From assembly GCA_963832305.1 (NCBI GenBank), contig CAWHTU010000008.1, forward strand, positions 44,906 through 108,905: a DNA stretch of 64,000 nt, written 5' to 3'. The DNA is from an uncultured Alphaproteobacteria bacterium (GTDB taxonomy: Bacteria; Pseudomonadota; Alphaproteobacteria; Rhizobiales; Beijerinckiaceae). Shown piece after piece: positions 6,532-61,187 of the stretch. The translations under genes and the position numbers were made by a program. The notes under the pieces were generated by a model. That model did not search any database and had not been told where the DNA came from. It saw nothing but the letters and a program-made list of their open reading frames with translations. Numbering within the stretch: position 1 is the first letter of the stretch; every line of letters starts with the position of its first letter.

Positions 6532-6587
6532 CGTATGCCACTGAAAACGCTCGTTTACGACGAGAGAATCCAAGACAATCCAAGCTT
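6532..6587 (-). repeat. Degenerate intergenic repeat, copy A
   Basis: Reverse complement AAGCTTGGATTGTCTTGGATTCTCTCGTCGTAAACGAGCGTTTTCAGTGGCATACG matches copy B at 34/56 positions without gaps. Confidence 0.6.
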
Positions 6588-6773
6588 CCGCATCCCTCGC
6601 TCGAGGGGTGTTCCAGGGGCCAACCCGCGGGTAACCAAGAAATTCCAAGAAAGAGGCCTAATATACATTTTCGCATCGCCTATTAAGGCCGCTCCAAAGC
6701 GGCTTTGAGGGACGCGGCGGTCCGGAAATTCCTCCTCGCCGAATCGGACGCGATCGGTTAGGAGAGAAGCCCC

Positions 6774-8402
6774 ATGGCGCGGTTTATCTTCATCACCGGC
6801 GGCGTGGTCTCCTCACTTGGCAAGGGTCTGGCTTCGGCGGCTCTCGGCGCGCTCCTGCAGGCGCGCGGCTATACGGTGCGGCTGCGCAAGCTCGACCCCT
6901 ATCTCAACGTCGATCCCGGCACGATGAGCCCGACCCAGCACGGCGAGGTGTTCGTCACTGACGACGGCGCCGAGACCGACCTCGACCTCGGCCATTACGA
7001 GCGTTTCACCGGCCGCAGCGCCAACCGGCAGGACAACATCACCACCGGCCGCATCTATCAGGAGATCATCGCCAAGGAGCGGCGCGGAGAATTCCTCGGC
7101 GCGACGGTGCAGGTGATCCCGCATGTCACCAATGCGATCAAGGACTTCATCCTCGAGGGCAACGAGGGCTTCGATTTCGTCCTGGTCGAGATCGGCGGCA
7201 CGGTCGGCGACATCGAAGGCCTGCCGTTCTTCGAGGCGATCCGGCAGCTCGGCAACGACCTGCCGCGCGGGCATGTCGTATTCATCCACTTGACCCTTCT
7301 GCCTTTCATCCCGACCGCTGGCGAGCTCAAGACCAAGCCGACCCAGCACTCGGTCAAGGAATTGCGCTCGATCGGCATCCAGCCGCACATCCTGCTCTGC
7401 CGGTGCGACCGCGAGATCCCCCGCGAGGAGCGGCGCAAGCTCGCCCTCTTCTGCAACGTGCGCGAAGGCGCCGTCATCGAGGCGCGCGACGCGCGGTCGA
7501 TCTACGACGTGCCGGCGCTCTATCACGCAGCCGGCCTCGACCGCGAAGTGCTGGCCGCCTTCGGCATCGAGCCCGCGCCCAAGCCCGACATGCGCCGCTG
7601 GGACAGCGTCTCCCGGGCCTACCACAATCCCGAGGGCGAGGTGTCGATCGCGGTCGTCGGCAAGTATACGGGCTTGAAGGACGCCTATAAGTCGCTGATC
7701 GAGGCCCTGACCCACGGCGGAATGGCCAATCATGTTCGCGTCAAGCTCGACTGGATCGAAAGCGAGATTTTCGAAAGCGCCGACCCGGCGCCACGGCTCG
7801 AGGGCGTCAACGGCATTCTCGTGCCGGGCGGGTTCGGCGCGCGTGGCGCGGAGGGCAAGATCCTGGCCGCGCGGTTCGCGCGAGAGCGCAAGGTGCCCTA
7901 CTTCGGCATCTGCTTCGGCATGCAGATGGCGGTCATCGAGGCCACCCGTTCACTCGCCGGACTGCCCGAGGCCAATTCGACCGAGTTCGGCCCGACGCCC
8001 GAGCCGGTCGTCGGCCTCATGACTGAATGGCTGCGCGGCAACGAGCTCGAGCGGCGCCAGGCCGCCGGCGATCTCGGCGGCACAATGCGACTCGGCGCCT
8101 ATCGCGCCGATCTCAAGCCGGGCTCGCGGATCGCCGGCATCTACGGCGAGACGGAGATCTCGGAGCGCCACCGCCACCGCTACGAGGTCAACACCGCCTA
8201 CCGGGCGCGCCTGGAGGCGAAGGGCCTCGTATTCGCAGGCATGTCGCCCGACGGGCTGCTGCCAGAGACGGTCGAATTCGCCGATCATCCGTGGTTCATC
8301 GGCGTCCAGTTCCACCCAGAACTCAAGTCGCGTCCGTTCGAGCCCCACCCGCTGTTCGCGAGCTTCATCGCCGCCGCGAAAGCGCAGAGCCGGCTGGTGT
8401 AA
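6774..8402 (+). CDS. pyrG: CTP synthase
   Basis: [45 protein letters not shown]. Confidence 0.98.
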
Positions 8403-8478
8403 GGCGCGGCAGCGGCCGGAATTGGAAAACGCGGCCATTCTGCGCTCGTGCCCGCGGCAATTCCGTTTTCGCTCTCGA

Positions 8479-10542
8479 TTACGCCATCGCGTGGCGCCGC
8501 GCCCGAAATCCTGCCAGGCCGAGTCCGCCGAGGCCCATGAGGAGCCAAGTGGCCGGCTCGGGAACGGGGACGGTCGTCAAGCGAATGTCGTTGCCCACGA
8601 GGCCGGCATCGGCGTTGTACGTGTAATCGATGCTGAAGCGATACCAGGTCCCGTCAAAAGCGGCGTTTACAAATTGCCCGTCACTGAACAAACCAGATAC
8701 GGGGTCCGTCCCGTCGTTGGCGACAATGTCGAAGCCCTCGCCCAGCGTTGGCGCGGACAAAAGATCGAGGACAAGGTTCGCACCGTTCAAGGCGAGCGCG
8801 CCGGTCACGTTCAGGACGTCGTTCAAGCCCTGGCCCTGCGAGTTGGTCGGGTCGAGATCGATCATGAGGACGCTGTCCGCCTTGAGGGTCGTGTCGCCGA
8901 CGTTCAGCGCGCCGACTCCGCTCGCGCCCGGCGACAGCCGCGCGCCCGCGTCCACGGTCACTGGCCCAGAGATCGCGCCTCCCATATTCGCTGCGCCGCT
9001 GACGACCTCGACATCGGCGAAGTTCGACACGGCGCCGGAGTAGCTGAAGCTGTGACCCTTGCCGATGTCGAGATACATCTCGTTCACGCCTCCGACGCCG
9101 CCGGAGATATCGCCGAGGACTGAAGCCGCGCCGCCGGATATTGTCACCGTATTGTTCCCGGCGCCCAAGGCGATCGCCTTGCCGCTGCTCGAGCCGTCGA
9201 CGGTTCCGGCGTTCGTGATCGTGACGGGATCGAAGCTGGACGTGGCGTCGATCGCCGCGGTTGTCACGCCGCCGCCCCTTATGGTGGCGCCGGCTTCGTT
9301 GTTGATCGCCACCGTGTGACCGGACGCCTGGTCGCCGATCACAGCGATTCCGGAGTCGCTGTCGCCTTGAATCAGGCCGCCAGCCTGATTGGTGACCGTC
9401 GTGTCGCCATAAATCGGCTCGCGTTTCCCCGCGTCCGGACCGGTGGTGATGTCGTTGCCGGTGAGCGTGATGCCACGTCCGACAGCGGTCGTGTTGCCCG
9501 CAGCGACAGAGCCCTGGATAGTTCCGGAGTTGACGATCGTGCCGCCGCCGACCGACAAGCCCTCGCTTGCCGAACCAACCGCGTTGATCGAGCGGATCGT
9601 GCCGGTGTTGGTGATATTCACGAGGCCGTCCACGTCGATGCCGTCGCCGTCGCCGGTTACCCCGTCGCCGGTGATCAGGCCGTGATTGACGACAGTCACC
9701 GTCTCGAGAGCTCCAGCGCCGTTCAAGGCGTCAATATTGATGCCGGACCCATTGTCGCCCTGAATTGTCGCTCCGGCGTTGTTGGTGACGCTCATGGTGA
9801 AAGTGCTGGTCGCGTCGAGCTGGCCGCCAGTGATTCCGTGCCGTCCGCCTTCGATCAGCCCACCCGAATAGTTGGTGATTTGCACGCCGCTGTTGTTCTG
9901 CGCGTCGACGCCGTCGCTGCTGCTGCTGGTGGTCGTCGTGGATTTGATCGTGCCCCAATTGTTGACAACGCCATTGACGCCGGGGCGCACCGCGTCGCCC
10001 TCGTTCGCTTGCATGAGGCCATAATTATTGACCGTATTCGCTCCCGAGGTGATCGCGTTAAAGTCCACGACCTGGTTTCCGCTGGCCACGGGATTGTTGA
10101 TCGAGATCATCTGGCCGTAGTTATTCAGGGTGACGCTGGCCGGCGACTTGTTCATCTGAATCACGTCTCCCTGGGTGGTCTGCATCAGCGCGGTCGAATC
10201 TGCGACGCCGCCGCATCCCACCACGCCCGAGGCGCAGCCATTGTAGACCGTGAGGCCGGTGACGCCGGTATTGTCGCGGATCGCCCGGCCGGTTCCCGTC
10301 TGCTTGAGCGCGCCCAGATTCGTCAGCGTCGCGTCATTGCCTGAAATCGTCACCGCGGTCGTACCGCCGCTGACGGTGAGCGACCCGGTATCCGTGATTG
10401 TGCCGGTCTGCCCGGCGCCGGACCCAAGGGTTTGCGCGGTTGTCGAGGCGTTGCTGATGGTGAAGGTGCCGCCGAACGCGGGCGGCGTCGCCAACAGGCC
10501 CAAGGCCGCGATGGCTGCAGTTTGAAGCAGGATGGTCTTCAT
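8479..10542 (-). CDS. Secreted Gly/Thr/Asn-rich repeat protein with a PEP-CTERM sorting signal
   Basis: Signal peptide MKTILLQTAAIAALGLLATPPAFG, repeated I.N.G.I motifs, C-terminal VPEPATW + hydrophobic helix + RARR. Confidence 0.85.
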   Translation of the reverse strand: MKTILLQTAAIAALGLLATPPAFGGTFTISNASTTAQTLGSGAGQTGTITDTGSLTVSGGTTAVTISGNDATLTNLGALKQTGTGRAIRDNTGVTGLTVYNGCASGVVGCGGVADSTALMQTTQGDVIQMNKSPASVTLNNYGQMISINNPVASGNQVVDFNAITSGANTVNNYGLMQANEGDAVRPGVNGVVNNWGTIKSTTTTSSSSDGVDAQNNSGVQITNYSGGLIEGGRHGITGGQLDATSTFTMSVTNNAGATIQGDNGSGINIDALNGAGALETVTVVNHGLITGDGVTGDGDGIDVDGLVNITNTGTIRSINAVGSASEGLSVGGGTIVNSGTIQGSVAAGNTTAVGRGITLTGNDITTGPDAGKREPIYGDTTVTNQAGGLIQGDSDSGIAVIGDQASGHTVAINNEAGATIRGGGVTTAAIDATSSFDPVTITNAGTVDGSSSGKAIALGAGNNTVTISGGAASVLGDISGGVGGVNEMYLDIGKGHSFSYSGAVSNFADVEVVSGAANMGGAISGPVTVDAGARLSPGASGVGALNVGDTTLKADSVLMIDLDPTNSQGQGLNDVLNVTGALALNGANLVLDLLSAPTLGEGFDIVANDGTDPVSGLFSDGQFVNAAFDGTWYRFSIDYTYNADAGLVGNDIRLTTVPVPEPATWLLMGLGGLGLAGFRARRHAMA

Positions 10543-60567: not shown

Positions 60568-60651
60568 GGCGGCGACTCCTTGGCGGCTCGTTTCGCGTCG
60601 CGAATCAGGAGGTTGGCCACGCGAAACGGCACGCAAACTGTTTCATTATCG

Positions 60652-60689
60652 TTAACATATTATGAATCCCCGCAAACAGGTTATCCACA
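60652..60689. promoter_or_regulatory. CtrA-like site and DnaA box
   Basis: Minus strand TTCA-N7-TTAAC (one mismatch to TTAA-N7-TTAAC) at about 60651-60666. Perfect TTATCCACA at 60681-60689. Confidence 0.5.
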
Positions 60690-61111
60690 CAAATCTCCGC
60701 GGCAGGCGCTCTTTTTGCTTGACCTAGCGTAAGGGAAGACGACGGCGCCGTTGAGAAGATCGAGTCGGGTCAAACGGGCCAATCGTGTGAACGGGCCGCC
60801 ATCTCCCTCCGACTGTTGCGTGAAGCAGCCCCATGTCCAATCAAAAATCACCCATCTGGACAGAGGAGGGCCGCGAACGCTGCGCGATCACGGGGCTTGA
60901 GGTTCGGCCAGCCGGCGGGGCCTTCGCAAAGTTTTTGCCAGCGTCCGCTTGCGGAAAATCAGAATCTCGGGTAGGGTGGCCTCAACATGACGCACATCCT
61001 CGGCGACTTTGAAACGACCGGCGGCGACCGATCCGCCCGGAGCCGCGAGCGGCTTTCGCAACCGCGGCGGCGGCGATCAGGGCGAAAAACAAAATGATGG
61101 CCTCGAGTCAC

Positions 61112-61187
61112 CGCAACTCGTTGAAAAGGCTCAAAACGGACAAGGGGGATCCAAGGGAATCAAAGACTTTTTCTTGGAAAGTCTTTG
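61112..61187 (-). repeat. Degenerate intergenic repeat, copy D, with 10-bp hairpin
   Basis: Stem CAAAGACTTT(61161-61170)/AAAGTCTTTG(61178-61187). Reverse-complement core matches copy B at 39/56 with one gap. Confidence 0.65.

Follow-up and report, generated by a model that had tools for sequence, protein, structure and literature searches.

The window analysed here, a 64,000-nt stretch of DNA from an uncultured alphaproteobacterium of the Beijerinckiaceae (contig CAWHTU010000008.1, positions 44,906 to 108,905), carries four copies, A to D, of a dispersed intergenic element that we tentatively interpret as a small non-coding transcription unit converging on, and overlapping, the 3' end of a neighbouring gene. 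The copies belong to a family of units of ~300–440 bp that have a defined anatomy, no coding capacity, a biased position next to genes, a conserved promoter motif, and a record of presence or absence at the same site among relatives. From these features we infer that the promoter fires, which strand and ends the RNA has, and that neighbouring genes could be affected. A sequence-only reading of the window had proposed degenerate repeats of ~56 bp, a length that corresponds to the core only and understates the conserved part, hereafter block 1, which measures ~140–150 nt. That reading had missed the larger unit, the promoter carried by the opposite strand, the placement behind stop codons, and the use of the same words in hairpins and array.

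Family membership was assessed with an nhmmer profile built from 18 copies of other genomes and containing no window sequence, which recovered all four proposed copies in place and on the proposed strands:

61240-61104, minus strand: copy D, E=3.9e-32
11912-12054, plus strand: copy B, E=3.4e-30
6586-6532, minus strand: copy A, E=2.8e-5
45091-45197, plus strand: copy C, E=9.2e-3

No other match in the 64 kb fell below E 0.6, apart from a reverse-strand match inside B (E 0.059), which is its palindrome. Given that a profile without window sequence recovered both, A and C are diverged members of the family, and the earlier hand alignment of A was right. Pairwise, all 27 intergenic regions of the window were compared by Smith-Waterman alignment with dinucleotide shuffles as the null. 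B and D were the best pair (score 43, runner-up 33, shuffles 21.6 ± 2.2), B and C exceeded the shuffles marginally and only under softer scoring (20 versus 11.9 ± 1.5), and neither A with any other copy nor C with D rose above chance. The core shared by B and D, CTTGTCCGNNTTGAGNCNTTTCAA, occurred twice in the window versus 0.01 occurrences expected. A generic repeat finder missed the family in the window because the copies are too diverged.

A scan of the 24-nt core against one genome per species (185,579 species) returned 20 loci, with up to five exact-core matches per metagenome-assembled genome (MAG). Eighteen were in alphaproteobacterial MAGs (Roseiarcus sp., a palsa Hyphomicrobiales bin, and Danish soil MAGs), one was labelled Acidobacteriaceae (L013; loci outside the window carry L numbers), and one (L018) was rejected as a chance match of the 24-mer inside coding DNA. 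The L013 contig holds one canonical copy, and its flanking open reading frames (ORFs) share the high GC3 of the alphaproteobacterial loci; mis-binning is likelier than transfer. A second, related pattern yielded 22 loci on soil and peat metagenome contigs. The family is neither confined to the window nor equalled by shuffled DNA, with 46 distinct further copies in other loci at E<1e-12, alignable over ~150 nt around the core, and with partial copies as well. Carriers were nearly all Roseiarcus-like Hyphomicrobiales from soil and peat, and the 24-mer is a practical marker that singles out this clade almost exclusively among the species genomes scanned.

The sequence-only reading knew no named family for the repeat, and our comparisons agree: Rfam 15 covariance models gave no match at the four sites, either at the gathering score or at E≤10 in a search of the whole window, and blastn with the full unit as query gave none in 72,556 plasmids, of which many are rhizobial. 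Stretches of 21 kb from Roseiarcus fermentans, a close MAG, and Methylocapsa lacked the element, and literature searches returned no description of this repeat family. We infer a new family of a familiar REP/BIME/RIME-like kind, with the putative function discussed below.

On the strand used by the sequence-only reading, hereafter the reader's strand, the unit is arranged in the following order:

(i) a loosely conserved AT-rich stretch
(ii) an array of 6–8 CCAAR words
(iii) hairpin H1, 10–12 bp, with arms ATCMAAGGAAA / TTTCCTTKGAT
(iv) a near-invariant 24-nt core, CTTGTCCGnnTTGAGCCTTTTCAA
(v) a 4–5 bp GC hairpin, GGGT-TGCGCTG-ACCC (CGAGT/ACTCG in D, GGAGT/ACTCC in L017)
(vi) an A run (15 copies) or a T run (13 copies)
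(vii) a variable stretch of 70–130 nt
(viii) a second conserved block, 205–295 nt from the start of block 1, in ~30 of 46 copies

The words of the array are spaced by 10 nt (62 cases) or 11 nt (36 cases) and together span ~65–75 nt, with 31% C and 20% G. The arms of H1 are built from the same CCAAG/CTTGG words as this periodic array upstream of it, and H1 is AU-rich (AAUCCAAGGAAA/UUUUCUUUGAUU; mean ~−10.7 kcal/mol). The 24-mer holds the dyad TTGA-N6-TCAA and is near-invariant while its flanks vary, an invariance that is partly forced by the search patterns; the pattern-free copy L045 differs at two core positions. Copy D has a 1-nt insertion inside the conserved block. In the whole units of D, L005, and L026, there are no terminal inverted repeats, only internal CCAAG/CTTGG pairs.

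The best estimate of the full unit length comes from L026 (122-3196), where 2.2 tandem units with a period of 437 nt are 91% identical; they adjoin an IS21-like transposase gene truncated at about codon 258, next to which lies an IS4/5-like DDE transposase gene, so that the locus is a graveyard of mobile elements. At two further loci, L006 (1517-1530, minus strand) and L020 (1344-1357, plus strand), a small hairpin, GGGGTCGTGCGCTGACCCC, directly follows the neighbouring gene's stop codon; similar to the GC hairpin of the element, GGGTTGCGCTGACCC, it may be a separate short REP-like motif.

The second conserved block reads CTTTGCG-AAAATCAGAA-nnnn-TGn-TAnnnT on the strand opposite to the reader's strand and points back towards the core. 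TAnnnT stands at a fixed offset in 21 of 23 copies while its three inner positions vary freely, which is the pattern of a sigma-70 promoter under selection rather than of plain sequence inheritance. The extended minus-10 position carries T in 71% and G in 86%, and CTT lies 22–24 nt upstream. At the level of motifs, the block is predicted to be an extended-minus-10 sigma-70 promoter, with a spacer, AAAATCAGAA, conserved beyond the need of a sigma-70 spacer. By their promoter-to-core distance, the copies group into two main classes, with a few intermediates: a short class of ~126–131 nt, in which the purine-rich GGAAAGGAGCAGAGAAAGAA precedes a U run, and a long class of ~171–191 nt, with an ATG 7–11 nt past the minus-10. 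Within the window, a promoter hidden Markov model (HMM) clearly matched D (E=2.4e-6) and A (1.7e-4), and weakly C (0.93). A promoter of the same build, CTTTCTGAAAATgggAAttcaTGcTAGTGT, also occurs without block 1 in Methylocapsa sp. S129 (L050, 964-1010, minus strand), ahead of the region of the 129-aa gene that in the window follows nusB; this promoter type, or a leftover of the unit, may predate the canonical element and have a wider distribution.

Other regulatory assignments were tried and rejected. A sigma-70 promoter on the reader's strand, with CTTGTC as minus-35, has no conserved TA...T 17 nt downstream. For a sigma-54 promoter, the TGGCAA-N5-TTGCG near D is absent in its orthologue L045, and the GG/GC spacing in the core does not fit. 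An FNR/FixK/CRP-type operator, which should keep its dyad in all members at about −41.5 from a start site, was suggested by the core dyad of canonical copies; the dyad is lost in A and C, and no common minus-10 follows the dyad because an A run stands there in 15 copies and a T run in 13.

The position of the element next to genes is strongly biased. The array starts at most 106 nt past the stop codon of a gene co-oriented with the reader's strand in 30 of 33 full copies (median ~30 nt). In this count, the array start is slightly overlapped by two ORF calls, and for two copies the distance is larger; with each orthologous locus counted once, the ratio is 22 of 24 (binomial p ~2e-5, hand arithmetic). 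Given that the array end of the unit stands at the stop codon, the promoter faces the 3' end of a convergent gene. These neighbours are unrelated housekeeping genes (hemC, nusB, glpK-like, pdxH, folP-like, a rhodanese, a TetR regulator, and others), on the promoter side the adjoining gene may face either way, and in many loci the unit occupies the entire intergenic region. The exceptions are aimed at gene starts: A at pyrG, C at pyrB, L040 at rpmH, a partial copy in L030 at corA, and L005 and L012 at an ABC-transporter-like gene, the last assigned by sequence motifs only.

The nusB site documents gain or loss. The order of nusB and the gene for a 129-aa protein is conserved among the window, L044, L045/L046, and L047. 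The region between these genes is filled in the window (690 nt) and in L045/L046 (514 nt; NusB 92% identical), and empty in L044 (183 nt; NusB 86%) and L047 (168 nt; 84%), and all four loci can be aligned beyond the insertion point, over a sequence that contains a DnaA box. Two lineages carry the element at this site and two lack it, so copies come and go. A GACTC that may be shared by the two junctions of D is a weak candidate, and filled and empty nusB sites are too diverged to reveal a clear target duplication.

Resident copies have been conserved unevenly along their length. Orthologues of copy B follow hemC in L010 and L007 (HemC 88–90% identical), and three other orthologous pairs were available. 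Across these pairs, whose flanking proteins are 88–92% identical and for which the baseline of the alignment method is ~55%, the identities between orthologous copies were:

array: 72–89%
hairpin plus core: 82–90%
promoter: 69–83%
variable part: 61–70%
flanks: 53–77%

Non-orthologous copies are still ~79% identical in block 1, with an unalignable variable part, and L045, which was found through NusB and is free of pattern bias, scores E=1.7e-27. Given that block 1 and the promoter are much better preserved among orthologues than the variable part or the flanks, constraint seems to act on each copy rather than to reflect recent bursts. Long retention of resident copies under purifying selection would, at this sequence level, be one part of the tentative reading that follows.

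In that reading, an extended-minus-10 sigma-70 promoter on the complement of the reader's strand would drive a transcript of ~200–250 nt whose first 70–130 nt are specific to the copy and whose last ~100 nt are conserved and comprise the GC hairpin, the 24-nt core, the AU-rich hairpin, and a U-rich tail. The AU-rich hairpin with its U-rich tail would probably end most transcripts. The array of 6–8 CCAAR words would sit beyond the hairpin and abut the stop codon of the convergent gene, and as a result the element RNA and the 3' end of the neighbour's mRNA would share ~100 nt of complementary overlap. Any element RNA could, in addition, base-pair with the remaining 3' ends in which a copy is present. 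The element would be gained and lost site by site and, once in place, be kept for long under purifying selection.

Several observations bear on the strand and the RNA itself. In the two hairpins, G.U cells numbered 37 on the promoter-driven strand versus 5 on the reader's strand. The promoter-driven strand runs through an AU-rich hairpin and then a U-rich tail, which a scan called terminator-like in D. On the reader's strand, a T run follows the GC hairpin in 13 of 34 copies, and the three of these inspected closely (L016, L011, and L024) look like ordinary intrinsic terminators. The organism of the window occurred in none of the RNA runs; elsewhere, the element was present at L006 and L030 in peat and permafrost metatranscriptome assemblies. 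Some contigs, such as L006 1228-1456 with zero mismatch, run contiguously from the promoter or the variable part to the hairpin, and others (1362-1591, 1342-1529, and 1461-1626) extend from the adjacent gene across the array and stop shortly beyond the GC hairpin. These data are compatible with overlapping convergent transcripts, without proving them.

Other observations weigh against the proposed transcription unit. The sequence-only reading had listed a structured RNA among its options, and we found no strong structure: RNAalifold returned almost no consensus (−0.64 kcal/mol, four invariant pairs), H1 was 84% paired versus 83% in shuffles with no significant covariation, and the folding z-score was about −2 on both strands. 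The named helices likewise had a covariation score of 0.118 versus 0.108 in shuffles. One column supplies most of the G.U asymmetry, which could be a single inherited state, and only 9 of 34 copies pass a strict terminator threshold (dG ≤ −8 kcal/mol and at least 5 U in the tail). The metatranscriptome contigs are unstranded and shallow, with DNA carry-over possible, and at L006 and L030 they gave no clean transcript ends; some of those at L006 start upstream of the predicted start (1155-1325, 1070-1291, and 1228 versus ~1244), and over the L030 copy in run X6, depth was as flat as over the flanking genes, with no abundant separate small RNA. Copy B has no match to the promoter HMM. Finally, the conserved array lies past the proposed terminator, and its conservation is left unexplained by the model.

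The first three alternatives are not mutually exclusive with the transcription unit that we favour. Under the first, which we consider unlikely, the element is a selfish non-autonomous mobile repeat without host function, akin to transposable elements of the miniature inverted-repeat type (MITEs) or REP and ERIC sequences, whose promoter and hairpins are relics or signals of mobilisation and whose place after stop codons is a tolerated insertion site. The filled and empty nusB sites among relatives, the tandem units beside a truncated IS21-like gene and an IS4/5-like gene in L026, the partial copies, the patchy distribution, and the frequent filling of a whole intergenic region would all be expected of such a repeat. 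Against it, there are no terminal inverted repeats and no clear target duplication, and the ~8–20 kb read around each match contained no associated transposase; the IS21-, IS4/5-, and IS110-like genes near L026 and L045 have no ends in common with the element. Moreover, the preferential conservation of block 1 and promoter among orthologues speaks against it, and the strong orientation bias requires either selection or oriented insertion. The MITE/REP-like label given by the sequence-only reading thus stands in part: the element is dispersed, multi-copy, and non-coding, and it is REP-like in the broad sense because it is present or absent at one same locus among relatives, yet it lacks the terminal inverted repeats of a MITE. 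The protein-binding array that the same reading had listed stays a candidate.

The second alternative, to which we assign a somewhat smaller likelihood, turns to the reader's strand and regards the unit as a portable 3'-end cassette within the mRNA of the upstream gene. Its C-rich, G-poor CCAAR array would load Rho, or else a different oligomeric protein that binds RNA; hairpins and core would form a downstream pause or release zone or a 3' stabiliser, and the facing promoter would be secondary. Rho-loading sites have a size and make-up like that of the array, which offers CC words every 10–11 nt over 65–75 nt at 31% C and 20% G, a resemblance to a rut site only. The start of the array within ~100 nt of a co-oriented stop codon in most full copies would follow directly, as would the contigs that run from gene to array to core, three of which end at L006 1342-1362 just past the GC hairpin, and the T run after that hairpin in 13 of 34 copies. 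Yet assembly may have broken at repeats to give these contig ends, the C/G ratio has a modest value of 1.5, and a period of 10.4 nt is also one turn of the DNA helix. The G.U pairs favour the opposite strand, no co-oriented gene precedes A, C, L040, L005, or L012, and the cassette leaves the conserved promoter unexplained.

The third alternative, which appears doubtful, is a platform at the DNA level that a regulator, nucleoid-associated protein, topoisomerase, or recombinase would bind through words spaced by a helical turn, their inverted copies, and the 24-mer. A period of 10–11 bp would put all words on one face of the helix, the 24-mer is near-invariant amid varying flanks, and the promoter spacer is over-conserved. 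The elements sit between convergent genes, where supercoiling accumulates, and the REP/BIME elements of E. coli bind gyrase and IHF. However, the search patterns account for part of the 24-mer's invariance, L045 differs at two of its positions, and A and C have lost the TTGA and TCAA halves; the G.U asymmetry and the orientation bias remain unexplained by a platform, and we know of no candidate protein that binds the element.

More speculative still, and quite improbable in our view, are two bolder forms of these ideas. The promoter-driven element RNAs could be guide-like, with tens per genome, each combining a variable 5' part of 70–130 nt for its own target with a conserved 3' scaffold (GC hairpin, 24-mer, and AU hairpin) bound by a protein; or the unit could be a portable Rho-loading terminator cassette that spreads within the genome and provides 3' ends in a GC-rich bacterium with few intrinsic terminators.

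Genes for small proteins on leaderless mRNAs are very improbable. In most long-class copies an ATG does stand 7–11 nt past the minus-10, and several predicted products begin with MND or MD. The ORFs from this ATG, though, range from 12 to at least 100 codons and enter the core in different frames, orthologues differ in length (26 versus 76 codons; 100 versus 35), variation beside the core falls on first and second codon positions, D carries its 1-nt insertion, and the short class has no start codon. We rejected a coding function on the differences in ORF length, in frame, and between orthologues. Chance resemblance of AT-rich intergenic DNA, which the pairwise results for A and for C with D would allow, can be dismissed, as B and D lie ~10 standard deviations above shuffles, which refutes it for these two copies, the independent profile gave E-values of 4e-32 to 9e-3, and dozens of copies exist elsewhere. 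Two further candidates were set aside: a CsrA-type GGA decoy, as the triplet after GGACAAG varies (GGG, GGA, GAG, GCC, GCG) and the array words are mostly UUGGC, and a putative BoxA/nut-like reading of GAGCCUUUUCAA with the hairpin, a resemblance only, against which the position in the 3' untranslated region (UTR) argues.

In the window, the four copies were resolved into the following features, starting with copy D:

60948-60977, plus strand: D promoter block CTTGCGGAAAATCAGAATCTCGGGTAGGGT (minus-35-like CTTGCG, minus-10 TAGGGT), directed towards nusB; matched at 60946-60983 by the promoter HMM without window sequences
60984-61103, plus strand: D variable region, long class, poorly conserved relative to orthologue L045
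61104-61120, plus strand: D small GC hairpin, CGAGU-loop-ACUCG
61121-61144, minus strand: D near-invariant 24-nt core CTTGTCCGTTTTGAGCCTTTTCAA (reader's strand), exact pattern match
61150-61197, plus strand: D hairpin zone with H1, a D-specific hairpin, and a U-rich tail, terminator-like
61150-61178, plus strand: D hairpin H1, UCCAAGGGAA / UUUUUCUUGGA
61161-61187, plus strand: D-specific 12 bp hairpin, flagged by the terminator scan with tail CTCAATTTTG
61179-61241, minus strand: D array of CCAAR words (YTTGG on the plus strand) at 10–11 nt spacing, from the block-1 HMM; ends 17 nt past the nusB stop codon
60760-60947 (approximate), no strand: rest of the D segment absent from the empty sites L044 and L047, from the filled/empty alignment
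11912-12054, plus strand: B block 1, directly after hemC (the profile match above)
11912-11974, plus strand: B array
11975-11985 and 11995-12005, plus strand: B hairpin, ATCAAAGGAAA / TTTCCTTTGAT
12009-12032, plus strand: B core, then a degenerate GC hairpin
12205-12245, minus strand: B putative degenerate promoter remnant (TTGCGA, ~27 nt, TACCTT), read from the sequence
6403-6432, plus strand: A promoter block CTTGCCGTAAAACAGAAGTCATGCTAGGTT (TGcTAGGTT), directed towards pyrG (6774); promoter HMM 6401-6438
6532-6586, minus strand: A diverged core (the profile match above), with two AATCCAAG words at 6568-6585
6633-6706, plus strand: A further CCAAG words (6633-6655), AATATACAT motif, and hairpin, read from the sequence
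6688-6706, plus strand: A hairpin GCCGCT-CCAA-AGCGGC then TTTG, 68 nt before pyrG, unlisted by the terminator scan
45091-45197, plus strand: C diverged block 1 (the profile match above)
45132-45141 and 45150-45159: C hairpin, GAAAACGAAA / TTTTGTTTTC
45165-45188: C core equivalent, TTTTTCGGAATCTGGACTTTTCAT
45320-45349, minus strand: C promoter block CTTGCCAAAATCAGAAATATATGCTATGGC, directed towards pyrB (start 44999); HMM match weak, E=0.93

In D, an ATG 9 nt past the minus-10 opens a 36-codon ORF that is not conserved. Compared with the GGGU/ACCC of L045 and the family consensus, the CGAGU/ACUCG hairpin of D has changed on both sides with pairing kept. The hairpins that had been noted in B (11 bp), D (10–12 bp), and C (~7–10 bp with G.U) are present. 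Copy A had been described as lacking a stem, but a different one of 5 bp exists at 6550-6564, where the wobble stem of the core appears as a perfect CTCGT/ACGAG stem. The stretch 6633-6706 is assigned to copy A by position and motif only and may belong to the element.

The genes on either side of the copies are:

copy A: ABC-transporter ATPase gene (plus strand, ends 6191) and pyrG (plus strand, starts 6774)
copy B: hemC (plus strand, ends 11876) and the gene of a secreted 601-aa protein (plus strand, starts 12381)
copy C: pyrB (minus strand, starts 44999) and a DUF1810 gene (minus strand, ends 45404)
copy D: nusB (minus strand, ends 61259) and the gene of the 129-aa protein (minus strand, starts 60568)

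These intergenic regions have a G+C content of 51–59%, compared with ~65% for the window, in agreement with the AT-richness first described. NusB and PyrB of the window are 84–95% identical to Roseiarcus MAG proteins, with PyrB at 89% to Roseiarcus fermentans and 86% to Methylocapsa sp. S129, and the same nusB locus is present on a JGI soil metagenome contig. Copies A (6403-6706) and C (45349-45091), both diverged, lie 5' of the pyrimidine-synthesis genes pyrG and pyrB with their promoters pointing in, and may now serve these genes as promoter or leader. No counterpart of copy C was found before pyrB in Roseiarcus fermentans, a MAG with 92% identical PyrB, or Methylocapsa.

The sole Rfam or ARAGORN match within the window is a tRNA-Ser(TGA) at 10773-10862 (plus strand). 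The 601-aa protein encoded 3' of copy B (12381-14186, plus strand) has a signal peptide and no Pfam match. Downstream of nusB, the only perfect DnaA box in the 64 kb, TTATCCACA (60681-60689, plus strand), lies in the promoter-like region (site at 60687-60659, minus strand) of the 129-aa gene (60179-60568, minus strand), and the box with ~120 nt around it is conserved in L044, L045, and L047, whether the repeat element is present or not. In Methylocapsa sp. S129, the 129-aa gene adjoins NUDIX, DUF983, and RNase R genes.

Rhizobiales commonly carry interspersed repeats between their genes, most of them without a known function. The combination of a promoter, an array with helical period, a position at stop codons, and conservation at the level of single loci amid decaying surroundings suggests that this element is a working part of 3'-end biology rather than junk, with convergent antisense RNA, termination, and mRNA stability as candidate roles. 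Its carriers are abundant, mostly uncultured bacteria of peat and soil. If it is true that the element shapes the expression of many housekeeping genes, annotation and metatranscriptome analysis should include it.

Compared with known systems, the proposed unit recalls the sibling small RNAs (sRNAs) alpha-r14/cuckoo and AbcR, which are also paralogous intergenic units with their own promoter and terminator. Those families have conserved seed loops, clear covarying stems, 2–9 copies, and entries in Rfam, whereas the element varies in its 5' part, is conserved in its 3' part, has weak structure support, and seems to reach a higher copy number. Like enterobacterial REP/BIME sequences, the element is extragenic, with a frequent location just past stop codons as well as between convergent genes, and it is mosaic with a varying copy number. 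REPs, however, are GC-rich imperfect palindromes of 20–40 nt mobilised by RAYT transposases; the element shares their extragenic 3'-end position and has no such palindrome, its hairpins being AU-rich or only 4–5 bp long, and it is ten times longer and carries a promoter. Roles proposed for REP/BIME are 3' UTR stability, termination, and binding of gyrase and IHF (bioRxiv 10.64898/2026.03.23.713779).

Correia elements and other bacterial MITEs are small non-coding mobile repeats that can carry promoters and terminators and alter neighbour expression, with presence/absence variation between strains, and a Porphyromonas gingivalis MITE has an internal minisatellite comparable to the array of the element (PMC10969869, PMC4596501). 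Small, non-coding, multi-copy, and present or absent at orthologous sites, the element resembles them in these respects, but MITEs are defined by terminal inverted repeats and target duplications, of which it has no inverted repeats and no clear duplication. The RIMEs, Sm-repeats, and AB/C palindromes of Sinorhizobium and Rhizobium are likewise intergenic Rhizobiales repeats present in dozens and of unknown function, and their conserved sequence and structure confound sRNA prediction (PMC2573895); the element resembles them in position and mosaic build, and it matched no Rfam family and none of the 72,556 plasmids.

The nearest described case is that of Br-REP1 and Br-REP2 in Bradyrhizobium japonicum, alphaproteobacterial repeats that, like the element, stand at convergent 3' ends, their 50–200 copies being located where the 3' UTRs of convergent genes overlap (Hahn et al., 2016; PMC5082802). 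They differ in their unrelated sequence (CCGGAATCTCGAGATTCCGG and a 40-mer) and in being short palindromes of 20–40 nt, for which no internal promoter, periodic word array, or unit of 300–440 bp has been described. Br-REP1/2 give rise to sense and antisense small RNAs, and the authors speculate that REP RNAs act in trans on mRNAs that carry a REP (PMC5082802).

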